Source: Candidatus Latescibacterota bacterium (GTDB lineage: Bacteria > Latescibacterota > UBA2968). Taken from it: 64,000 bases of DNA. Position numbers and translations under genes: made by a program. Shown in pieces: positions 18,694 to 29,193 of the stretch. Below the pieces are notes generated by a model. That model ran no database searches. It was not told the DNA's origin and saw only the letters and a list, made by a program, of their open reading frames with translations. The stretch lies in the NCBI GenBank assembly GCA_965204375.1, contig OZ241986.1:64001-128000 (forward strand). Reading direction: 5' to 3'. Position 1 is the first letter of the stretch; each line of letters begins with the position of its first letter.

Positions 18694-19014
18694 ATGAATA
18701 AAAAAATAAAATCTGTTCTGGAGATATTGCGCCGTCAATTTGAGATATTTTATGGTGATCGACTGGCGCACATGGTGTTATTTGGTTCGCGTGCCCGCGG
18801 CGATGCAGAATCCGATTCAGATATTGATGTGCTTATTGTATTACACGGACATGTAGATGCAGTTGAGGAAATCAGACGAACCAGTGGGATTGTATCCAAT
18901 CTTTGTTTGGAATATGAAGTAGTAATCAGTTGTGTGTTCATGGATCTTTATCGCTATAAAAACAAACAAGGACCACTACTTCGGAATATACGCAAAGAGG
19001 GCGTTGCGTTATGA
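18694..19014 (+). CDS. Minimal nucleotidyltransferase (MNT antitoxin-type)
   Basis: LFGSRARGD...SDIDVLIV; C-terminal LLRNIRKEGVAL. Confidence 0.9.
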   Translation: MNKKIKSVLEILRRQFEIFYGDRLAHMVLFGSRARGDAESDSDIDVLIVLHGHVDAVEEIRRTSGIVSNLCLEYEVVISCVFMDLYRYKNKQGPLLRNIRKEGVAL

Positions 19015-19027
19015 AGGAGGTATAAAC

Positions 19028-20068
19028 ATGACATTTCCTGGAGCAGAATGGGAGATGAGGCCGCCCAGTGATCTCGGCTTTGACGTGGAGAAACTCGCAC
19101 GGGTGCAGAGGTGGTTGCGCGAGGTGGCGGAGGATAGGCCATTTCAAGTGGGGATTGCGCGTTATGGGTATCTCGCGGCAGAGTGGCGGCAAGGTGTTGC
19201 GGCTGATTCGATGCCCTCGCAGGCGTCTGCTGCAAAGTCGTATTATTCGACGCTTCTGGGCATTGTTGTGGCGGAGGGGAAGTTGTCTTCGCCAGATGAA
19301 AGGGTTGTCGATTACTATCCAGAGATGATGGATGTGGGCGAGCAGGAAGGCCCAAAGCCCGGGCGGTATGCGTTTGAGAAGGATCGCGATATTACTTTTC
19401 GGCATTTGATATGCAATGTGTCGGGCTATATGAAACCGGGGGAGAAACCGGGGGAGGTTTTTCACTATCAGACTTATGGGATGAATATTCTGATCCACGC
19501 AATGGCTAAAATTTACGGGTGTTACGATGCAAATGATCCCGAGGGTTTGCCGGGATGTGGGAAGGTGATCGAAGAAAAATTGCGCGATCCAATTGGGGGT
19601 ATTTGGACTCATTCGCATTCCAATTTCGATCTGTGGCCCAGTGCGAGATTAAATATTTTCGGGTATTACACGCAGGTGCATACCACATTGCGCGATCAGT
19701 TGCGGGTGGGACATTTGTGGGTCAATTACGGCAATTGGAATGGGGTTCAGGTCGCGCCGGAGAATTACTTGCGCGAAGCAACGGTGACGAATGATTTTAT
19801 TCTGGAAAACGAACCCGAAGAGAACTGGAAATATGGACACGGATTCTGGTGCAATGATCGCGGGATGCAGTGGGCAGATGCGCCGAGAGATTCTTTTGCC
19901 GCATCGGGCGCAGGTGCGAAGCATATCTGGATGTGCCCGCGGTTGGGTCTGGTTATCGCGCAAAATCCAGGGCTGTGGGATCAGTTCAGGGAAGAGCAGG
20001 ATAAGATCGGGAGTCAGAATGAGGTGATTGCGCGAATTGTGGATGCGGTGAAGGAAGTTGTTTGGTGA
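19028..20068 (+). CDS. Serine hydrolase (beta-lactamase/AmpC-like family)
   Basis: SxxK motif (SAAKS), PGEVFHY, YGHGFW; ATG 19028 with AAGGAGG RBS. Confidence 0.85.
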   Translation: MTFPGAEWEMRPPSDLGFDVEKLARVQRWLREVAEDRPFQVGIARYGYLAAEWRQGVAADSMPSQASAAKSYYSTLLGIVVAEGKLSSPDERVVDYYPEMMDVGEQEGPKPGRYAFEKDRDITFRHLICNVSGYMKPGEKPGEVFHYQTYGMNILIHAMAKIYGCYDANDPEGLPGCGKVIEEKLRDPIGGIWTHSHSNFDLWPSARLNIFGYYTQVHTTLRDQLRVGHLWVNYGNWNGVQVAPENYLREATVTNDFILENEPEENWKYGHGFWCNDRGMQWADAPRDSFAASGAGAKHIWMCPRLGLVIAQNPGLWDQFREEQDKIGSQNEVIARIVDAVKEVVW

Positions 20069-20096
20069 TTTTGATTTATGCACACGCCTCAACAAA

Positions 20097-20339
20097 CTAC
20101 GATTCCGCAGAGATCGATGCGGTATCGTACACTTTCCGTTTTTCACGCAATGGAAGGAGATCTGTACTCTCACACGTTATAAGGGCATAGGTGTAGCCAT
20201 CTTGAGCTACAAATTCTACTTCATAGCCATCATCAGGATGACATTCCACGACCGTGCCTATTTCGCCACGTACCAACTTGTGTTCCAACTTATCGTTTGT
20301 TAATGCCACCACATCCAATAGGCGAATATCATTTGTCAT
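20097..20339 (-). CDS. DUF4926-like small acidic protein (putative immunity/antitoxin)
   Basis: LLDVVAL...LVRGEIGTVVE...YEVEFVAQDGYTYAL. Confidence 0.8.
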   Translation of the reverse strand: MTNDIRLLDVVALTNDKLEHKLVRGEIGTVVECHPDDGYEVEFVAQDGYTYALITCESTDLLPLREKRKVYDTASISAES

Positions 20340-20341
20340 TC

Positions 20342-20683
20342 TTACCTCTCCTTCAAAGGGTAGCATGTGACAAGACGAGGATGTTGCTCGAGGGGTCTAA
20401 TATTCCAAACACTCCGGACCAGAGCTTGATGCCCTTGCCAATTCATCATAAAATTCAGTTCATAACGCTGTCCGTGAGCATCTTTTCTCCCCAATGTTGC
20501 CTCATGTGTGCGAACGACTTCAAGCAGAATATTACACAAAACTTCTGCATTTTCTTGTGTAATCCCAAATATAGAATCAAATAAACGCGCCTTATGACGA
20601 CCAACACGGTGCTGTGTGTTAAGCGTATAATCTCTAAGTTTCCTGATATCAATGAAGGCGTGTTCTGCGTTGGGTATAATCAC
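20342..20683 (-). CDS. DUF6883-like protein (putative toxin/nuclease)
   Basis: IPNAEHAFIDIRKLRDYTLN..H..GRHKARLF...PRLVTCYP; likely GTG start at 20683; 2 nt from the DUF4926-like gene. Confidence 0.72.
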   Translation of the reverse strand: MIIPNAEHAFIDIRKLRDYTLNTQHRVGRHKARLFDSIFGITQENAEVLCNILLEVVRTHEATLGRKDAHGQRYELNFMMNWQGHQALVRSVWNIRPLEQHPRLVTCYPLKER

Positions 20684-20911
20684 TATTGGACCAAAACCGT
20701 TGAGTTTTGCAGAATCAAAAGGGATAAAAAATATACCACAATCACTATGGCTGGTCAATGTGGGACTTCATTAGAAGATGGTCTTTCGAGTTTGGATGGA
20801 CAATGGATGGGTGCTTTGAAAGGGCGATGGCTTTAAGAGATAGGTTGATAATCGAAAATGGCGTAAAGGAACAAAGGCCGCCAACTGTTCACTTTAATTG
20901 AAGGAGTCAAA

Positions 20912-22624
20912 ATGCTTCAGACTCAAAAAAGATTTTGTGATTATCTGGATAACGTAAAAACGGAATTGGGCAAAGCGAGGTCTTCGGGTTTGTTTGAGGA
21001 ACTCGAAAAAAACATCCATGCCTCGGAAGCGTTAAAACAGGATATTGCCGAGGCAGAGTTGATTGTGCCGGTGGTTGGAGCTTTTAGTGCTGGTAAAAGT
21101 ACGTTGATCAATTCTTTTTTAGGTTCTGGCCTTCTACCTGTGGACATAACTCCGGAAACAGCATTGGCAACGGAGTTGCGTTATTCCGAAAGTGAATATA
21201 TCGAGGCAATCAAGGCCGATGATGAGTCGGAACGTTACGACATCGCAGAGATTGAAGCGATCAATGAGAAGGCGAATCAATATCAATATGCAAAAGTCTT
21301 TCTCAATAGTGAACAACTCGAGGAGATTTTTCCATTGATTCTCGTGGATATGCCCGGTTTTGATTCTCCGCTGGATTTACATCACCGAGCTATTTTAACA
21401 TACCTATCCAGAGGAAGCCACTATGCGGTTCTGATCAGTGTAGAGGAAGGCACCATCACCCGCTCGGCCGAGCGGCAGTTGTCCGAGTTTTTCGAGTTTG
21501 ATAAGACGTTTTCCATCTTTCTGAGCAAGGCGAATCTGCGCTCGGATACTGAGGTTGGGGAGATTGCACAGAATATCGAGGAGCGGCTTGAGGACGATTT
21601 TGGTTTTGCCGATTCCGTTGTTCCCGTGGGCATGGATGGCGGCGATAGCCTTGACAAGATGCTCAAGACCATTGATCCAGAAGTGCTTTTCGGCAAGCTC
21701 TGGCGTCCCAATTTGGAGGCGTATTTTTTTAATCTCGATGGCAGTTTGAACACCCGGATCAGTTCTTTAAAAAAGAATCAAAAAGAAAACGAGGAGGCCA
21801 TTGAAAAACTCGCCTCGGGCCTTCAGGATTTAAAAGAAAAAAAGGAAGAGATGATTCAGGATATTCGGGATCGGTATTCCACAACCCATGTCAACGCCAT
21901 TGTAGAGGGGGTGGGCGCAGATCTGAGTGGTTCCGTAGAGGAATTGACACAAGTCGCTATTTCCAGTGGAGAAACTGCCTTGCAGCGAGAATTGTCGGAG
22001 ATTTGCCGTACCTCGCTTTTGAATAATGTGAAAGCCGAAATGGGGCGATTAAACGAACAGATTGTAGAAGACTTATCCAACAGCCTCAAAGGTATTGATC
22101 TTGTTTTCTCCTCTTACACAGATGAACACTGGTTGGAAAAAGTCGCGTCCAATGCGCCACAGCTTATTTCTAAAGGGAGCGCAATTCTTAAAAATGTTGG
22201 TCGTACTGCAAAAGGAGGACGGAATTTTTACCGAGCCATCACGACTATTGGAGCTATTACCACCAGTTTTGTGATACCCATAGTGGAACTTCTAATCGTA
22301 TTCCTTCCAGACATTTTTGGTTATTTCCAAAAACAGAGGCAAGAGGAGCAGATACGCAACCAGTTGCTGGGGACGGTTATCCCCTCCGTCAAAAGCAAAC
22401 TTCGCAGCGAACTTCCCGAATATTTCAATGAGCAAGTGAACCGTCTGATCAATGAGAACGCAGAGGCCCTTGATTTGCAAATCAAGGCCAAACAAAGCGA
22501 AATTGCCGAAGCCGAGAAGGCCAAACAGAACGAGATGCGAGATGTTGAGCAGACGATAGCCGAGCTGACTGATATTCAGGAGAACGTCCGATCACTGGCG
22601 AATCAAGGGATTTTCGCGCAATAA
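20912..22624 (+). CDS. Dynamin-like GTPase 1 with hydrophobic paddle
   Basis: G1 GAFSAGKS, G2 TPET, G3 DMPG, G4-like SKAN; helical trunk; hydrophobic AITTSFVIPIVELLIVFLPDIFG. Confidence 0.9.
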   Translation: MLQTQKRFCDYLDNVKTELGKARSSGLFEELEKNIHASEALKQDIAEAELIVPVVGAFSAGKSTLINSFLGSGLLPVDITPETALATELRYSESEYIEAIKADDESERYDIAEIEAINEKANQYQYAKVFLNSEQLEEIFPLILVDMPGFDSPLDLHHRAILTYLSRGSHYAVLISVEEGTITRSAERQLSEFFEFDKTFSIFLSKANLRSDTEVGEIAQNIEERLEDDFGFADSVVPVGMDGGDSLDKMLKTIDPEVLFGKLWRPNLEAYFFNLDGSLNTRISSLKKNQKENEEAIEKLASGLQDLKEKKEEMIQDIRDRYSTTHVNAIVEGVGADLSGSVEELTQVAISSGETALQRELSEICRTSLLNNVKAEMGRLNEQIVEDLSNSLKGIDLVFSSYTDEHWLEKVASNAPQLISKGSAILKNVGRTAKGGRNFYRAITTIGAITTSFVIPIVELLIVFLPDIFGYFQKQRQEEQIRNQLLGTVIPSVKSKLRSELPEYFNEQVNRLINENAEALDLQIKAKQSEIAEAEKAKQNEMRDVEQTIAELTDIQENVRSLANQGIFAQ

Positions 22625-22636
22625 GGAGAAGCGAAA

Positions 22637-24874
22637 ATGGAAACTACTGGAATTGTCGCATACCGGGAAAAGCTGGAGCAGGTCGTTGGAAGGTATCACG
22701 ACTTTCTCGGTGATGAAGCGGAGAGCCTCTGCCAAGAACACAGCGTTCCCACCGCAAGGGATTTACAGGCGCAGATGGCGTCCATTAAAAATGAGGAACG
22801 CTTACTGAAAATCGGCATTGTGGGGCGGGTCAAGTCGGGAAAATCCTCGTTGCTGAACGCCCTCGTCTTTGATGGGCAAAGTATTCTCCCCGAGGCGGCG
22901 ACCCCAATGACGGCGTCTTTGACGACCTTGTCTTATGGGGAACCGCTGTCGGCGGAAGTGGAATTTTTTACCCAAGAGGATTTAGCGGATATCAGGGACA
23001 AGGCCGAAGAATACGACAGGCAATTGGAGAGGCGCGTCAGAGAAATTCGGAACAAAGAAAAAAAAAGAAAAAGCCTATTTTCTCGAAGGAGTCGGCAAGA
23101 AAACAAGAGCCGATCTCGAAGAGACTCGGATGAACGGGTGCAACGCAGAGCCGAAAGAGAGATGCGCGAGAATATCGTACTCTCGTCCGCCCGCGATCAA
23201 TACAAAAAAATGATCGAGAGCGGAGTATCCCTTGAGAATTTGCCGGAAAATGTACTTCTGAAGTTTGGAAATCCTGCGGATTTACGCAGCCAGTTGAATG
23301 AATATGTCGGTGCGAAGGGTCAGTATATGCCTTTTACCAAAAGCGTCAATATTCGGTTGCCGCAGGAGAATCTCAAGGATATAGAAATTGTAGATACCCC
23401 GGGCATCAACGATCCGGTGCAGTCGCGGGAAGCGCGTACCCAAGAGCACTTGAATCAGTGCGATGTGGTGTTGGTCATCAGTCCTTCGGGGCAATTTATA
23501 AACCAGGTGGATCTGGAATTGATGGATCGCATCACCAGCAAGGAAGGCATCCATGAATTATTTGTGGTGGCTTCTCAAACGGATACCCAGCTTTTAGGCC
23601 ATTTGAAGGCCGAGAATAATGGACAGTTAGATCTCGTGTTGGATAGCCTTACCCGCGTGCTGGGGAACCAATTGGAAAAAGTGATCGCGGACCTAAAAGA
23701 GAGCTCTCCCGAAGTGGGAGATACTTATGATCAGTTGCTCGAAGGGCAAAGCAAGGTCATCCACTCTGCGGGGCTTTGCGAAAGCCTGAAGCAACGCTTC
23801 AGGCAAAAGGATGAGTGGAGCGAGGGGATGCAGCATGTTTGGGACAATTTGCAGACGGGGTATCCCGATTATTTTTCCGATACAGACGAGAATTTGTCGC
23901 GCTTCAACTTGGAAAAGCTGTCCAACATATCGACCATTCGGAATATCGTTGAGCAGGTGCGAGAGAAAAAGCAGGAAATTCTCGATAAGAGGATAGACAA
24001 CTATGTCCATGCAAAATACCAGTCCCTACATGCCTTGAGAAAGGGACTGCTCGCGTATGCCAACGAACGGCAGTCCCAAATTGAGAGCACGGATATTGCA
24101 AAATTCAAGGAACGGAGGAGAGGATTGACAAAGGCTCTCGACGATGCTTCGGAAGAGATAAAGGATGAGTACGAAGAATCGATCTATCTGATAAAAAAAT
24201 CCATGCGAGGTGAATTTAAGCGAGAATCAGAAGCACGCGAGCAGGCGTTAAAACGAAGGATCGAGAATGAGAAAGGAGAAGATAGTGAAACGTATGAAGA
24301 TGGTCTCATATTTAAGAAAACTCGCACCAGGACGTTTGCCACCATCCGCACAAATGCTGTCCATCGACGCTTATCGGAGTTTTCTGAAGAACTGAAAGAG
24401 GAGGTTGTGGATAAAACAGAGGATAAGAAGAAAGATTGGCGGAAGTATCTCAACCAGAATATGACCAAAATTTTAAGAAAACATTTTGGCGATGAGGATT
24501 TGGAAGCCTCCCTGATCAGCCGGGTAATCAGAGATACTGTTCACTCGATAAATATTCCAGCCTTTGAATACAAAAAACAAATTCCAGATTCCTTGAAATC
24601 CCAAGGTGTTTTGAAAGATGAGGAAGCGAAGAAATTTTTTGATGAATCCCGCGACTATGCTGATGATCTATGTAGAGGAACAAAAAAAGAGATAAGCGCG
24701 TACATAAAAGATCTCGCCAAAAGGATGGAGCAAGGGCATTTGTATGAGCGGTTGCTGGAACAATTCCAAAAAGAACTTGCCACACTTGAGAAATCCATTG
24801 CAAACAAGGAAATGGAGTTAAAAAGAATCAGCAATCTCAAGGGTGAGTTAGAAAAAATTGCGGAGATGAACTAA
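22637..24874 (+). CDS. Dynamin-like GTPase 2
   Basis: G1 GRVKSGKS, TPMT, DTPG, G4-like SQTD; long charged helical C-terminus; AAGGAG RBS. Confidence 0.9.
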   Translation: METTGIVAYREKLEQVVGRYHDFLGDEAESLCQEHSVPTARDLQAQMASIKNEERLLKIGIVGRVKSGKSSLLNALVFDGQSILPEAATPMTASLTTLSYGEPLSAEVEFFTQEDLADIRDKAEEYDRQLERRVREIRNKEKKRKSLFSRRSRQENKSRSRRDSDERVQRRAEREMRENIVLSSARDQYKKMIESGVSLENLPENVLLKFGNPADLRSQLNEYVGAKGQYMPFTKSVNIRLPQENLKDIEIVDTPGINDPVQSREARTQEHLNQCDVVLVISPSGQFINQVDLELMDRITSKEGIHELFVVASQTDTQLLGHLKAENNGQLDLVLDSLTRVLGNQLEKVIADLKESSPEVGDTYDQLLEGQSKVIHSAGLCESLKQRFRQKDEWSEGMQHVWDNLQTGYPDYFSDTDENLSRFNLEKLSNISTIRNIVEQVREKKQEILDKRIDNYVHAKYQSLHALRKGLLAYANERQSQIESTDIAKFKERRRGLTKALDDASEEIKDEYEESIYLIKKSMRGEFKRESEAREQALKRRIENEKGEDSETYEDGLIFKKTRTRTFATIRTNAVHRRLSEFSEELKEEVVDKTEDKKKDWRKYLNQNMTKILRKHFGDEDLEASLISRVIRDTVHSINIPAFEYKKQIPDSLKSQGVLKDEEAKKFFDESRDYADDLCRGTKKEISAYIKDLAKRMEQGHLYERLLEQFQKELATLEKSIANKEMELKRISNLKGELEKIAEMN

Positions 24875-27243
24875 TGTACCAGAAATTTATCCAGAAAGTG
24901 AACTCACTTTGGGAAACATTTGTAAGAAATCGATCAGTGTATAAAAAGCTGTTGAGTAAGGAACATGGTGAGTTGCTCTTAGAACAAGATGCCCTATCGA
25001 AAAGATATGAGCGAGTAAAAACCGAATTGGATGATACTCAAGGCAGTCTCAATAAGCTACGCGATGAACATAGTGGACTATCTCAAAAATACGCACTGGT
25101 CTCCGACCTGCTAACTGCCAAATCCAGTGAAAATGAAGCATTTGAGAAGTTTAAGGAACTTTTTGATGGGGAATTTATGGCCTTTGCCAATAAGGAGTCC
25201 TCACTGGCCGACGAAGCGGCGGCCGTGCAGCAGCTACAAACGCTGGAGAAGCGTTTAGAAAAGATTGTGGCATTCCCGCACACATTTACGAAGCGGTCCA
25301 TTGCCATCGGCGGTGGATTTAGCAGCGGCAAGTCGGCATTTGTCAATAGCTTTATCGAGCATCCCGACATTCAGCTTCCCGTGGGCATTCAGCCGGTTAC
25401 AGCCATTCCCTCGTATGTCATGGACGGTGTGGATGCTTCGATCAAGGGCTATTCCCGTACTGGGGGCACGATCGATATCCCTCCGGATTTCTACGTCCAA
25501 CTGTCCCATGATTTCATAGATACGCTTTCGTTTAATGTCAAGGACTTGATGCCTGAAATCGCCGTGGAAGTGCCGTTGCAGGCGGACTTGTTCGAGCATA
25601 TCTACCTGATCGACACGCCGGGCTACAACCCGGCTGGAGGGCAGACGAGTGAGGACGAGGCTACGTCGGCTGAATTTCTCAAGGATCGGGATGCTTTGAT
25701 CTGGATGATCGGTCTGGACGCGACGGGCACGGTGCCCGAGTCGGATTTGGATTTCATTGAAGGGTTGGAACTGAATGAGCTACCGTTTTATATGGTTTTG
25801 AACAAGGCAGACCTCAAATCCGAAAGCGACTTGACGGATATTGTAAAGGAGGTGTGGGACACGCTTGATGATGCAGGTATTGAGCCTGTGGGCATCAGTG
25901 CGTATAGCGCGACTCTGCGTAAGGAATACCTGTATAAAGGGACGGCACTGCATGATTTTTTTCGCAGCCAAAATCATTTTGTTGAAGACCAGGGGATTGA
26001 ATTAAAAAAGGAGATTGAAGACGTTTTTGAAAAGTACGAAAAGGCTATTGACGATGATGAGAAAACTGCCTATGAGCTGAGGAAAAAACTCAATACTCTC
26101 AATCTCGATATAAACGAACTGGGGGGTGATTCTGACGCTGTGGATGTCTTGCAAGAGAAAATTGACAAGATCAAAAACTCTCAAAACAAAAATTTTGTGC
26201 CGATCAAGGTAGAGATGAAAGAAATACAAACGAAGATGCTCAGAGCAGTGGATGAAATTTTTTGGTCGTTGAGTTCTCAGAGTGCCGAAGCTATGCCCCA
26301 GCCTTTGTCTACTCCAAAGCCAAACAGCAAGAAATCAACAGTGAGACGTCAAGGCTATATCAGGGGCGGAAAATACATCAAGACTGACGCCGAACAATCT
26401 GAAAAACCTGCCTTTGCAAACCCTCAGCCACACTTTGATTCATGTGATTTTGAAAAAAAGCCGAAGAAATCCAAACGAATTGGCGAGGTTGCACGCGAGT
26501 TTAATTTATCAAGTTCGACAATGCTCACGTTGCTCCGCAACCTCGGTTTTAAATCAAGAAGCCCCAGGTCTATCTGTACACAGGAAATGGTTGAGGCAGT
26601 TCAAAGAGAATTAGGTGCTGAACGCCAAAATAATAAAAAGAATACCGAAGCAACAAAACGAATTGGCGAGGTTGCACGCGAGTTTAATTTATCAAGTTCG
26701 ACAATGCTCACGTTGCTCCGCAACCTCGGTTTTAAATCAAGAAGCCCCAAGACTATCTGCACACAAGAAATGGTTGAGGCAGTTCAAAGAGAATTGGATA
26801 TTGAACGTCAAATCGCAAAGAAGAACACCGAAGCAGCATCACAAACGCAGGCATTGATCAACATCAATCAGGCAACAGCAAAAGAGCTTGAGCGTCTGCC
26901 AGGCATTGGTCCTGAAATTGCGAAGCGCATCGTGGCCTATCGCAAACAGAACGGGCTATTTCAACGTATTGACGATCTCATAAATATCCGAGGCATCAGC
27001 CTCAAAATGCTTAATGATATGATCAGCATCAATCAGGCAACAGCAAAAGAGCTTGAGCGTCTGCCAGGCATTGGTCCTGAAATTGCGAAGCGCATCGTGG
27101 CCTATCGCAAACAGAACGGGCTATTTCAACGTATTGACGATCTCATAAAAGTCCAGGGCATCAGCCTCAGAATACTTAATGATCTGCGTTCCAAATTAGA
27201 GTGGAATTTAATAGATGTTTTAAGGCAGGCGAAAAAGCAGTAG
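24874..27243 (+). CDS. Dynamin-like GTPase 3 fused to 2x IF2 N-terminal-like and 2x ComEA-type HhH domains
   Basis: N-terminal coiled coil; GGFSSGKS, PVT, DTPG, NKAD; KRIGEVAREFNLSS...LGFK twice; INQATAKELERLPGIGPEIAKRIVAYR twice; TAATG overlap with the upstream gene. Confidence 0.88.
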   Translation: MYQKFIQKVNSLWETFVRNRSVYKKLLSKEHGELLLEQDALSKRYERVKTELDDTQGSLNKLRDEHSGLSQKYALVSDLLTAKSSENEAFEKFKELFDGEFMAFANKESSLADEAAAVQQLQTLEKRLEKIVAFPHTFTKRSIAIGGGFSSGKSAFVNSFIEHPDIQLPVGIQPVTAIPSYVMDGVDASIKGYSRTGGTIDIPPDFYVQLSHDFIDTLSFNVKDLMPEIAVEVPLQADLFEHIYLIDTPGYNPAGGQTSEDEATSAEFLKDRDALIWMIGLDATGTVPESDLDFIEGLELNELPFYMVLNKADLKSESDLTDIVKEVWDTLDDAGIEPVGISAYSATLRKEYLYKGTALHDFFRSQNHFVEDQGIELKKEIEDVFEKYEKAIDDDEKTAYELRKKLNTLNLDINELGGDSDAVDVLQEKIDKIKNSQNKNFVPIKVEMKEIQTKMLRAVDEIFWSLSSQSAEAMPQPLSTPKPNSKKSTVRRQGYIRGGKYIKTDAEQSEKPAFANPQPHFDSCDFEKKPKKSKRIGEVAREFNLSSSTMLTLLRNLGFKSRSPRSICTQEMVEAVQRELGAERQNNKKNTEATKRIGEVAREFNLSSSTMLTLLRNLGFKSRSPKTICTQEMVEAVQRELDIERQIAKKNTEAASQTQALININQATAKELERLPGIGPEIAKRIVAYRKQNGLFQRIDDLINIRGISLKMLNDMISINQATAKELERLPGIGPEIAKRIVAYRKQNGLFQRIDDLIKVQGISLRILNDLRSKLEWNLIDVLRQAKKQ
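26473..26838 (+). repeat. Intragenic tandem duplication, 183-bp period (IF2_N-like, 61 aa)
   Basis: Copies start at 26473 and 26656; about the first 95 nt are identical. Confidence 0.95.
26855..27184 (+). repeat. Intragenic tandem duplication, 165-bp period (HhH, 55 aa)
   Basis: Copies start at 26855 and 27020; about 120 nt are identical. Confidence 0.95.
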
Positions 27244-27293
27244 TCGAAAGATTAGCGCGTGGTGGCATGGGAAGGCAAGACCTCCATTTAACG

Positions 27294-27345
27294 AAAATAG
27301 CCTCTCGTTAGAATAACTTGACACAAAATAACGAGGGGCTATTTT
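27294..27345. promoter_or_regulatory. 17-bp inverted repeat enclosing a TTGACA...TATTTT promoter (operator or hairpin)
   Basis: AAAATAGCCTCTCGTTA / TAACGAGGGGCTATTTT with one mismatch; TTGACA at 27318. Confidence 0.65.
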
Positions 27346-27351
27346 GCTAAT

Positions 27352-27545
27352 ATGAAAACTATGACCACATTTGATAAAGATAATGATGCGTTGCGCCGTG
27401 GCCTGGACTATCCCAACAGCCGTTCGAGGTTAAGTCACGTCCACTTCGCCTGCGGCAGGGACTGGATCCCGCCCATTTGAGCGAGATGGACGATGACCTG
27501 GAAATCGAAGAGTTCCTCTGTAAGACTGCACGATTAAATGACATT
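27352..27545 (+). pseudogene. Degenerate VapB-like (RHH) antitoxin
   Basis: MKTMTTFDKD/NDALRRGL, then in another frame QPFEVKSRPLRLRQGLDPAHLSEMDDDLEIEEFL; internal deletion plus frameshift; no toxin gene follows. Confidence 0.6.
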
Positions 27546-27618
27546 AAAAAGGTCATAAAGATGGATGCAAAACCAAAAAACCACAGGTCGTTCAGGCCGT
27601 GAAAAGGATACTTGCGTC

Positions 27619-29193
27619 ATGCGCTTTTTCAACACCGCTGGTCCAATCAAGCCCGAAAGGCACTACTGCATCCCGCCTTTGGAACGCTTAAATATGGACG
27701 AGGTGTTCGCACTCATCCGAGAAGAGAAATACTTTGTCTTGCACGCGCCGCGGCAGACGGGCAAGACTTCTGCCTTGTTGGCGTTGCGCGATTTACTCAA
27801 CGCTCAGGACACTTACCGTTGCGTTTATGTCAATGTCGAAGGTGGACAAGCCGCACGCGAAGATGTGGAACAGGTGACGCGCGCCTTTCTGGGTGAGTTG
27901 GCATCTCGGGCGCGTTCAGTGGGTGACGAATTTCTGGACGAGATCTGGTTCGACATCCTGGCGAAATACGGGGGCCATGTTGCCTTGCGCGAGGCGTTGA
28001 CGCGCTGGGCACAGGCTGCCCCAAAGCCATTGGTGCTGCTCATTGACGAGATCGATGCTCTGATCGGCGATTCTCTGCTGTCCGTGCTACGGCAGTTGCG
28101 GGCTGGCTATGACCTTCGCCCGGAGGGTTTTCCGCAGAGTGTGGTGCTGTGTGGGGTGCGCGACGTGCGCGATTACCGCATCCAATCCACTGCAGAGAAT
28201 GCGATCATCGCCGGTGGCAGTGCGTTTAATATCCGCGCCGAGTCCCTGCGTTTAGGGGATTTCTCACAGGACGAGGTATTCGATCTCATCGCACAGCACA
28301 CGGCAGAAACGGGACAGGCATTCACAGCCGAGGCCCTGGAGACGATCTGGACGCAGACCCAGGGACAACCGTGGCTGGTCAACGCATTGGCTTATGAAGC
28401 TGGCTTTAAAAACAAGACCGGGCGGGATCGCAGCCAGCCCATTACGGACAACGCAATATGTGACGCACGGGAGCAACTCATCTTGCGCCGAGAGATACAC
28501 CTCGACCAGTTGGCCGATAAGTTGCAGGAAGAACGCGTACAGCGCGTGATTGAACCGCTGCTGAGTGGGGCTGAGGAACGTCGCTTTATTGACCGCGACC
28601 TGGAGTATGTACGCGATCTCGGTCTTGTGGCTCAAGATCTGCCGTACCGCATTGCCAATCCGATCTACGCCGAAGTCGTGCCGCGCGAACTGACGTGGGT
28701 GTTACAGGGGGAGTTTGAGCAGGAAACAGCCTGGTATATCAATGCTGATGGTAGTCTGAATGTGGTCAAACTGATGACCGAGTTTCAGATCTTTTTCCGC
28801 GAACACTCAGAGCACTGGGTGAGACGATTTCAATATCAGGAAGCCGGTCCGCAGTTGTTGTTGCAGGCATTTCTCCAGCGCATTGTAAACAGCGGTGGAC
28901 GCATTGAAAGGGAGTATGGTTTGGGGCGTGGACGCACAGACCTGCTGATTGTCTGGCCGCAGGGCGATGTGACGCGCAAGATTGTGATTGAGTGCAAAAT
29001 TCTCCACAAGAGCCTGGATCAGACCATTGCCGAGGGTTTGGAACAGACGGCGGAGTACATGGATCGTTGCGATGCAGAGGCAGGTCATCTGGTGATTTTT
29101 GACCGCCGTGAAGGGAGGCGTTGGGCGGACAAAGTATTCCGCAATAGTCGGACATCAAGTAGCGGGGTCGAGATTGAGGTGTGGGGAATGTGA
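27619..29193 (+). CDS. AAA-family ATPase with C-terminal PD-(D/E)XK-like nuclease domain
   Basis: MRFFNTAGP start; HAPRQTGKT Walker A; LLIDEID Walker B; EREYGLGRGRTDLLI...VIECK. Confidence 0.85.
   Translation: MRFFNTAGPIKPERHYCIPPLERLNMDEVFALIREEKYFVLHAPRQTGKTSALLALRDLLNAQDTYRCVYVNVEGGQAAREDVEQVTRAFLGELASRARSVGDEFLDEIWFDILAKYGGHVALREALTRWAQAAPKPLVLLIDEIDALIGDSLLSVLRQLRAGYDLRPEGFPQSVVLCGVRDVRDYRIQSTAENAIIAGGSAFNIRAESLRLGDFSQDEVFDLIAQHTAETGQAFTAEALETIWTQTQGQPWLVNALAYEAGFKNKTGRDRSQPITDNAICDAREQLILRREIHLDQLADKLQEERVQRVIEPLLSGAEERRFIDRDLEYVRDLGLVAQDLPYRIANPIYAEVVPRELTWVLQGEFEQETAWYINADGSLNVVKLMTEFQIFFREHSEHWVRRFQYQEAGPQLLLQAFLQRIVNSGGRIEREYGLGRGRTDLLIVWPQGDVTRKIVIECKILHKSLDQTIAEGLEQTAEYMDRCDAEAGHLVIFDRREGRRWADKVFRNSRTSSSGVEIEVWGM

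Follow-up and report, generated by a model that had tools for sequence, protein, structure and literature searches.

Three dynamin-like genes and the core of dlp3

The window analyzed here is a 64,000-nucleotide stretch of contig OZ241986.1 (positions 64,001 to 128,000, forward strand) from a Candidatus Latescibacterota bacterium. Its positive strand carries three tandem genes for dynamin-like GTPases, which we call dlp1, dlp2 and dlp3. The first, dlp1 (20912..22624), encodes a protein of 570 amino acids (aa) with a Dynamin_N domain (69.8 bits) in which the G1 and G3 motifs are present. The product of dlp2 (22637..24874) is 745 aa long and has a Dynamin_N match at residues 59-311 (77.5 bits) and a long charged insert in its G domain. 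The gene under study, dlp3 (24874..27243), is a single open reading frame (ORF) of 789 aa, and base 24874 both ends dlp2 and begins the dlp3 start codon. A first-pass annotation, made from the sequence alone, had described dlp3 as the third of three tandem dynamin-like genes; the Dynamin_N domains of both upstream genes agree with this description.

Profile matches, motifs and the predicted fold all place the dlp3 product in the dynamin superfamily of GTPases. Its Dynamin_N match spans residues 143-310 and scores 34.5 bits against a Pfam gathering cut-off of 27. The nucleotide-binding motifs are intact (GGFSSGKS for G1, DTPG for G3, NKAD for G4). Residues G146, G147, G152, K153, S154, D247, P249 and G250 are invariant in 63 dlp3 relatives, as is T176, the conserved switch-1 threonine. 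In the AlphaFold2 (AF2) model, which has a mean pLDDT of 79.6, an N-terminal helical region (residues 1-134, 24874..25275, with helices at 2-133) precedes the GTPase domain, placed by Pfam, motifs and invariant residues at 141-356 (25294..25941). C-terminal helices follow at residues 373-473 (25990..26292), then a disordered stretch (472-530) and four tail modules. In the model, segments that precede and follow the G domain together form a complete short helical bundle.

The best Foldseek matches of this model were a truncated mitofusin-1, that is, one of its minimal constructs (5yew, E 2.8e-12), IniA, Cj-DLP and BDLP, with 6j72 and 2j69 among the entries listed. In contrast to mitofusin-1, IniA and BDLP, the modeled dlp3 has no second helical bundle, trunk or paddle and no transmembrane segment, and so fails to show the paddle and trunk that mark a canonical BDLP. 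No hydrophobic segment is present in dlp3 (best 19-residue Kyte-Doolittle score 0.94), and its N-terminus has no hydrophobic segment of the signal-peptide kind, so the protein is probably cytoplasmic. Among the three proteins only dlp1 carries a hydrophobic membrane segment (residues 446-470, Kyte-Doolittle 2.2).

The N-terminal region differs in length among relatives, in which the Dynamin_N match starts anywhere from residue 89 to 568. The length of the coiled-coil that precedes the GTPase domain varies from almost none to about 500 aa built of repeated heptad-like units (P0004, P0009, P0010 and locus L125, 7152-9260). Thus, dlp3 is variable in length at both ends.

Duplicated modules in the dlp3 tail

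The region that follows the core is a string of modules, all on the positive strand, whose isoelectric point (pI) is 10.1 as opposed to 4.6 for the core. It begins with a basic disordered linker (residues 476-530, 26299..26463; pLDDT below 50 over residues 472-530, pI 9.7) that carries the motif RRQGYIRGGKYIKTDAEQ. Two IF2_N-like units come next, at 26473..26655 and 26656..26838, and Pfam, the repeats and a tree mark them as copies of the N1 domain of translation initiation factor 2 (IF2). Two ComEA-type helix-hairpin-helix (HhH) units, assigned by Pfam, TIGR00426, repeats and homology, lie at 26855..27019 and 27020..27184. The protein ends in a conserved helix, LEWNLIDVLRQAKKQ (27185..27240), which is helical in the models and is common to the IF2_N/HhH-tailed relatives.

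In each pair the second unit is a tandem duplicate of the first. The direct repeat of 183 nt at 26473-26838 (61 aa per unit) is 91% identical between its copies, and that of 165 nt at 26855-27184 (55 aa per unit) is 95% identical at the nucleotide level, which confirms the two 61-aa and two 55-aa units that the first-pass annotation had placed after the dynamin core. The two IF2_N units differ by 6 synonymous and 6 non-synonymous codons in the 60 compared, the two HhH units by 0 synonymous and 6 non-synonymous codons in 54.

The domain calls of the first-pass annotation, IF2_N and HHH_3, hold against curated models. IF2_N matches two stretches of the tail with 41.1 bits (Pfam cut-off 25.3); scored singly in a whole-genome scan, the units reach 25.7 and 24.3 bits. 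HHH_3 also matches two stretches, with 131.1 bits (cut-off 27), and the NCBIfam model of the ComEA HhH repeat region, TIGR00426, gives 104 bits (cut-off 53.1). The model of full-length ComEA, TIGR01259, reaches 124.8 bits, under its cut-off of 152.35. A full-length ComEA combines a membrane anchor with a single C-terminal HhH domain, whereas dlp3 has no anchor; judged by these profiles, the dlp3 tail is a copy of the ComEA domain and not a ComEA. Among proteins of solved structure, ComEA (8dss, 8dfk) and EEPD1 are closest to the tail in sequence. For the IF2_N units, the AF2 secondary structure is compatible with strand-helix-helix-strand followed by a long helix, and the Foldseek match to residues 1-363 of Thermus thermophilus IF2 is weak (E 0.1-0.3).

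The linker motif RRQGYIRGGKYIKTDAEQ recurs in HhH-tailed relatives, including those of genomes G082 and G084 (loci L032 and L033). It is modeled with low confidence as a small hairpin and may be a docking peptide. Neither the linker nor the C-terminal helix has a second copy in the genome.

The repeats are not an obvious misassembly. Short-read contigs of run X1 span both unit 1/unit 2 junctions (26537-26685 and 26955-27056) with zero mismatches, and X1 contig pieces common to both repeat copies have depths of 64.6 and 66.7, about twice the 32 of the flanks. X1 is possibly the sample behind the window assembly and therefore counts as a separate assembly, not as an independent sample. One contig from another sample, X3, is without one copy of each repeat, joining across one IF2_N unit (183 nt) and one HhH unit (165 nt). 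In X6, which belongs to another study, a contig is without one HhH copy; contig joins fall at window positions 26472-26656 and/or 26861-27027. These contigs suggest either copy-number polymorphism of the tail in related populations or repeat collapse during assembly.

Variability of the tail among dlp3 homologues

We next asked how common this architecture is. Tail types were taken from a precomputed Pfam column and counted by hand over the 120 homologues listed. Ankyrin repeats formed the tail of 62 of the 120, and HHH_3 was found in 20, 6 of which also had IF2_N. EF-Tu domain 2 was present in 4 homologues, an FGE-sulfatase domain in 3, and SWIB and DUF4113 (P0023) in 1 each. The expectation that third-dynamin orthologues would carry variable C-terminal tails was thus borne out, and the statement that no dynamin of this architecture is known gave way to 6 listed homologues with both domains. 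The DUF4113 domain of P0023 presumably derives from the C-terminus of UmuC-type polymerases.

A second count used 80 genome loci, returned by a pattern scan of species-representative genomes with the dlp3-family alignment A1. Among 30 tails of at least about 75 aa from these loci, 8 were ankyrin, 8 FGE-sulfatase, 2 HHH_3 and 1 EF-Tu domain 2, and the remainder had no match to a common family. One of the 8 FGE-sulfatase tails is the ankyrin plus FGE tail of a Latescibacterota locus; the other seven look, from their sequences, to be Fibrobacter-type loci, the scan having left its members unnamed.

Within the IF2_N/HhH group the modules vary in kind and number. If the two variants of the IF2_N unit are denoted A and B, and the HhH unit H, the order is B-B-H-H in this dlp3, A-H-H in P0002, A-B-H in P0004, B-H in P0005, and A-H in P0124 as well as in P0007, P0013 and P0027. 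The order of IF2_N before HhH, together with the terminal helix, recurs in at least six clusters formed at 90% identity, with cores that are 45-74% identical to this dlp3. Close variants of the terminal helix occur in all listed IF2_N/HhH-tailed proteins except P0007, whose C-terminus is longer and more diverged. P0003 (517 aa, 90% identical) has no tail and ends in unrelated residues.

A search of a representative library with the tail alone returned 43,030 matches, dominated by HhH proteins, and among the 150 tail-search matches listed IF2_N and HhH occurred together only in P0013, P0127 and P0185. Among 168 species representatives of the phylum, this genome alone has IF2_N-like units outside IF2.

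A dlp3 orthologue with a different translation-factor tail was seen in an uncultured Campylobacterales metagenome-assembled genome (MAG), where it ends in EF-Tu domain 2 (L121, 9270-9596). This tail is 49% identical to a 403-aa EF-Tu ORF of the same genome; it is a second example in which this dynamin carries a piece of a translation factor.

Conservation of the three-gene cassette

The other two genes of the cassette do not share this variability: dlp1 and dlp2 are conserved, and only the dlp3 tail varies. At ten loci of the same phylum, the alignments of dlp1 and dlp2 cover the entire proteins with 52-71% identity, while that of dlp3 is limited to about residues 30-510. The order dlp1-dlp2-dlp3 was found at all 8 of the loci whose fetched stretch includes dlp1; at the other two (L038 and L039) dlp2 and dlp3 were found, with no dlp1 in the fetched stretch. 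Among the 64 of the 80 scanned loci with at least 4.6 kb of upstream sequence, 61 had dlp1 and dlp2 upstream of dlp3, with the order kept and all three genes on one strand.

By record title, the 80 loci belong to Latescibacterota, Desulfobacteraceae, Campylobacterota (including Helicobacter pylori), Pseudomonas, Neisseria, Fibrobacter, Treponema, Planctomycetota, Bacteroidales and others. In one H. pylori record (L187, 3958-9455) the dlp2 homologue is split: its N-terminal part forms a piece of 247 aa, and the rest is fused with the dlp3 homologue in one 1029-aa ORF.

Promoter and terminator scans gave signals at chance level, and no RNA run was present among the sequencing runs listed as sharing sequence with the query. 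Several runs that contain small parts of the query's words bear sponge, coral or marine labels, from which no habitat is derived.

Origin of the tail

To trace the IF2_N units, a 64-aa unit was searched against all 168 phylum genomes. It matched the N-terminus of an IF2 ORF of about 800 aa in 150 of them. Identity was 43-52% within the genus, where the host's own IF2 tied for best at 52%, and 41-50% in the rest of the host family and order. Most of the other families and classes gave 24-38%, family f3 (38-46%) being an exception. The units share with IF2 the order-specific motif AREFNLSS and the genus-specific motif ICT.EMVEAVQ; their ends are IF2-like and their middle is diverged.

In a maximum-likelihood tree of 55 rows and 52 columns, all 13 tail IF2_N units, from 10 proteins, formed one clade (support 100/99) nested among the IF2 N-domains of the genus. 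Its sister was G091 plus G084 (92/81), followed by G082 (95/90). The nesting of the tail units in genus IF2 is well supported by this tree, the exact sister group is not. The simplest reading of the sequences is a single capture from infB within the genus, followed by divergence, with A remaining nearer to IF2 and B moving further, and by tandem duplication. This genome does not seem to have captured IF2_N anew; the unit was apparently acquired once, in the genus lineage, and then travelled with the cassette.

For the HhH unit, identity to ComEA-sized ORFs is 59-66% in all 20 other genomes of the genus and at most 57% elsewhere among the rows listed. Both HhH units are 60-66% identical to the HhH domain of the host's own ComEA, and 49-56% identical to the HhH units in the dlp3 tail of the genus-mate G082. 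Capture from the comEA gene of the genus is likely from these identities, though not proven.

Taken together, the nesting of the IF2_N clade in genus IF2 and the closeness of the HhH units to genus ComEA support capture in the host lineage. The first-pass annotation had derived the repeats from the housekeeping genes infB and comEA of the host: the origin from IF2 and ComEA of the host lineage stood, with best identities of 52% and 66% to the host's own proteins, and a capture of IF2_N in this very genome found no support.

A search for the IF2_N unit among longer proteins gave 31 candidates and 5 matches, all of them dynamin tails or fragments and none an IF2. That search needs shared five-residue words, which accounts for the missing IF2, and it is not a global test of the donor. 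One IF2_N+HhH-tailed homologue, P0027, is labeled as a Gemmatimonadota MAG, and its IF2_N unit nests within a Latescibacterota genus; its label reflects either transfer between phyla or a binning error.

Mobility and genomic neighborhood

The cassette lies in a 7.5-kb accessory island (20057..27554) that it shares with a toxin-antitoxin (TA)-like gene pair. The pair consists, on the negative strand, of a DUF4926 gene (20097..20366, 89 aa, 72.5 bits), probably one half of the pair, and its partner, a DUF6883 gene (20342..20758, 138 aa, 101.8 bits). This pair was absent from 90 other cassette loci and is unlinked to the cassette outside this island. The insertion is precise: in the same-genus genomes G076 and G077, which are without the island, the flanks meet with a 10-bp gap, and no target-site duplication was seen at the island ends. 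GC content is 45.5% in the island versus 50.8% in the genome.

Within the phylum the cassette is patchy. Matches to the dlp3 query P0001 at E ≤ 1e-20 were found in 11 of the 168 genomes, this one included, three of which were only 25-35% identical and were taken for other dynamins. Orthologues are thus present in 7 of the 167 other genomes: the genus accounts for two, among its 20 other members, and a single genus of another family, with 31 genomes, for the remaining five. The G082 cassette sits at a different chromosomal place. Plasmids carry it too: three adjacent "dynamin family protein" genes lie on a Pseudomonas aeruginosa plasmid, three adjacent dynamin genes on a Calditerrivibrio plasmid beside IS200/IS605 genes, and a three-dynamin operon on Escherichia coli IncF plasmids in 5 of 5,426 complete genomes. 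The cassette is horizontally mobile. The phage collection contained no match to the dlp3 core.

In one E. coli IncF record (L194, 3908-11496) dlp3 is short, 405 aa, and is followed by an overlapping gene for an 829-aa "CFI-box-CTERM domain-containing" protein. This separate protein may take the place of the tail.

On the P. aeruginosa plasmid (L192, 1-10365) a WYL-domain gene lies directly upstream of the cassette, which adjoins an EH-signature gene and a DEAD/DEAH-box helicase gene, with a transposase and integrases close by. We take the EH-signature and helicase pair to resemble Zorya components. WYL regulators are known from defense systems. At 7 of the 80 loci a WYL homologue occurred within the 8-kb flanks, and at 6 of these it lay just ahead of dlp1.

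Two further genes were noted in the window outside the island. A 542-aa gene with AAA_22 and PDDEXK_9 domains (27565-29193, positive strand) lies just downstream. Its family is multicopy: this genome has at least 7 further copies, 76-86% identical at the nucleotide level, and genomes throughout the genus have several each. The gene itself is present or absent at this site among genus members. A 106-aa ORF with a nucleotidyltransferase domain (NTP_transf_2/Polbeta; 18694-19014, positive strand) overlaps the start of a beta-lactamase-like gene and is a possible antitoxin-type gene.

Comparison with known dynamin-like systems

Descriptions of bacterial dynamin-like proteins (DLPs) usually concern pairs, and what these proteins do in the cell is mostly unclear. 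The closest solved relatives of dlp1 and dlp2 form such a pair in Campylobacter jejuni. The best match of dlp1 is Cj-DLP2 (5owv_C, E 1.4e-8) and that of dlp2 is Cj-DLP1 (5owv_A, E 1.5e-10), and in both organisms the genes are neighbors in one operon (structures 5owv and 5oxf). Cj-DLP1 and Cj-DLP2 form a 2:2 tetramer that binds lipid and tethers membranes (PMC6104087). The resemblance has limits: the matches are weak (E 1e-8 to 1e-10) and lie for the most part within the G domain, and the genes stand in reverse order. The third gene of the C. jejuni operon, for which no third dynamin is described, encodes an HcpA-like beta-lactamase, whereas the cassette here adds the variable-tailed dlp3.

LeoABC of enterotoxigenic E. 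coli (ETEC) and Eleos resemble the cassette in placing several dynamin-like genes in one mobile operon, and Eleos is reported as an anti-phage system (bioRxiv 10.1101/2022.12.12.520048). The first-pass annotation had cited LeoABC/Eleos among bacterial dynamins that affect phage infection. The cassette does not match the Eleos profiles: PADLOC gave only partial LeoA and LeoBC matches to dlp1 (E 3e-8 and 7e-8), with no match from the other two genes, and the NCBIfam LeoA/HP0731 model scored 20.9 bits against a cut-off of 325. Eleos is described with two components and no variable-tail third subunit, the cassette has three dynamin genes. The cassette fails the Eleos tests of profile and gene number, and we therefore do not file it as Eleos. 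In a Pseudomonas copy of the cassette, LeoA is matched by the dlp1-like protein at 1e-14 and LeoBC by the dlp2-like protein at 4e-9. The LeoC/LeoB split of ETEC (PMC4159319) resembles the H. pylori dlp2 split near its G domain. The cassette resembles heterotypic DLP pairs and is distantly akin to LeoA/LeoBC.

DynA of Bacillus subtilis offers a further parallel, as two DLP units acting together at the membrane and reported to be linked to phage defense (PMC12998192). Unlike dlp3, DynA is one fused two-headed protein that binds the membrane directly and has no nucleic-acid-binding tail. Systems built on DO-GTPases were rejected as a family home, since those enzymes form a different GTPase family with a GAP1 partner (PMC7159879).

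PADLOC was also run on 63 family members. PDC-M72A matched 7 of them and Ankyrin 6, about equal to the 7 ankyrin-tailed members included, and the output did not identify the matching members. Matches to LmuB and JetC look like coiled-coil noise and were discarded.

In the literature surveyed, which included few subscription journals and no supplements, we found no published dynamin-like protein with HhH or IF2_N domains and no published bacterial three-dynamin operon with a variable third subunit. Bacterial dynamins themselves are known; the dynamin tail of IF2_N and HhH modules and the variable-tailed three-dynamin cassette appear to be a new variant, not previously described in that literature.

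Proposed function of the cassette

The reading we favor, although it is about evenly poised between right and wrong, is that dlp3 is the targeting subunit of a mobile three-gene dynamin system and that its HhH/N1 tail aims the machine at DNA located at the membrane. It is read as a targeting subunit because dlp3 has no membrane-binding element and dlp1 carries one. In outline, the core that binds the membrane would consist of dlp1, with its hydrophobic element, and dlp2, which is similar to Cj-DLP1, a heterotypic partner. The trunk-less, mitofusin-minimal-type GTPase dlp3 would join this pair as an adaptor, and its exchangeable C-terminal module would set where, or on what signal, the machine assembles.

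In the branch studied here, the HhH pair would be expected to bind double-stranded DNA of any sequence, as ComEA does. The copied N1 domains may bind NusA. E. coli IF2 N1 binds NusA directly, as seen by pull-down and crosslinking (PMC12297416), and this is the partner shown there for a domain to which the first-pass annotation had assigned the ribosome. The tail units are the same domain, set on a dynamin in two copies and with an altered middle. In the host, the NusA gene lies directly upstream of infB, and its product has a C-terminal HhH-type domain. A complex prediction for host NusA (residues 266-451) with the tail (525-655) scored 0.00 and carries no weight for or against NusA binding. 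Membrane-located DNA, possibly being transcribed, would concentrate dlp3 and lead to GTP-dependent assembly and membrane remodeling; the triggering DNA is most plausibly incoming or foreign.

The cassette probably acts in defense against mobile DNA. We lean this way because its distribution is patchy and mobile and because a conserved core is joined to a fast-changing recognition end. The FGE-sulfatase tails, the plasmid context in P. aeruginosa and the WYL homologues point in the same direction; PMC7159879 describes domains of the FGE-sulfatase type as modules for variable binding in conflict systems.

The sequences show the architecture, the cassette and its mobility, the variability of the tail and its origin in the host lineage, whereas contacts between the subunits, binding of DNA and of NusA, any effect on phages or plasmids and the defense role are inferred. 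Several observations weigh against targeting of membrane DNA and against a defense role. ComEA-type HhH domains are normally periplasmic, and dlp3 has no signal-peptide-like N-terminus. Ankyrin and FGE-sulfatase tails point to protein or small-ligand targets, so that DNA targeting would be specific to one branch and not family-wide. For dlp2 and dlp3, PADLOC returned no LeoA/LeoBC match at E ≤ 1 and no defense family. The 10 neighbor genes scanned at other loci of the phylum are ordinary metabolic genes plus one transposase, and the defense-island case therefore rests on a few proteobacterial loci. As to the host-lineage origin, the IF2_N tree has 52 columns only and its bootstrap is unsettled, and the HhH tree shows three separate dynamin-tail clades without resolving a nesting inside genus ComEA.

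An alternative, which we judge unlikely, is an integrated decoy or guard, in which the tail consists of non-functional copies of host proteins that bait phage or plasmid factors; their binding would switch dlp3 on, and the dynamin machine would remodel or damage the membrane. The copying of the tail pieces from the host lineage's own genes would suit such a bait, as would the independent EF-Tu fragment in the Campylobacterales MAG, the fast turnover of tails and copy numbers on a conserved core, and N1 copies with IF2-like ends and a diverged middle. FGE-sulfatase domains as variable binders in conflict systems fit here as well (PMC7159879). The codon differences between the HhH repeats are all non-synonymous, but six are too few for a selection test. 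The commonest tails, ankyrin and FGE-sulfatase, are generic binders and not copies of host targets, and a single inherited capture in the genus lineage gives no evidence of an ongoing arms race. We know of no invader factor directed against IF2 N1 or ComEA.

A physiological role is improbable to the same degree. The cassette would here tether DNA or the nucleoid to the membrane, whether for positioning of chromosomes or plasmids in the manner of CrfC, for membrane repair where DNA crosses, or for loading of vesicle cargo, such as DNA or ankyrin proteins, as proposed for LeoABC. CrfC, listed by NCBIfam as a clamp-binding dynamin-like protein, was among the weak matches, and the DUF4113 tail with its presumed UmuC link, the SWIB tail of another relative and the housekeeping neighbors of the cassette in the phylum are in keeping with such a role. 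Deletion of LeoAB about halves vesicle-associated Tat-GFP and OmpA (PMC4159319). Against this stand the presence of an orthologue in only 2 of 20 other genomes of the genus, the differing sites per genome, the low-GC insertion, and carriage on plasmids beside transposases and integrases. Patchiness, variable sites, low GC and plasmid carriage together argue that the cassette is dispensable and mobile.

A broader proposal, which we rate as improbable, treats the whole cassette as an immune sensor-effector with a programmable third subunit. Some lineages would carry baits taken from host proteins on which invaders depend or prey (IF2 N1 plus ComEA HhH here, EF-Tu domain 2 in the Campylobacterales genome) and others generic binders (ankyrin, FGE-sulfatase). 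An invader protein or DNA landing on the bait would set off GTP-driven dynamin assembly, and the ensuing membrane remodeling would block infection.

That the tail is neutral baggage or an artefact, through a recombination accident or a miscount of repeats in assembly, is very improbable: the X3 and X6 contigs with fewer copies and the tailless P0003 would fit it, but the frame is open through four modules that exceed curated cut-offs, module order and terminal helix persist in at least six clusters with diverged cores, and the junction-spanning X1 contigs match the window exactly.

Implications

These results point to a conserved, mobile, three-gene form of bacterial dynamin that extends from Latescibacterota to Pseudomonas, Neisseria, Helicobacter, Fibrobacter, Treponema and plasmids of E. 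coli, and in which one subunit carries an exchangeable recognition module. The origin of the tail can be traced to infB and comEA of the host genus, a rare and clean case of domain capture from housekeeping genes. If the tail aims at DNA or serves as bait, it would provide a handle on how dynamin remodeling is triggered in bacteria, possibly in immunity. Plants possess integrated-decoy immune receptors, and the sensor-effector cassette, if it is one, would be their bacterial counterpart. The E. coli plasmid copy offers a tractable laboratory system.

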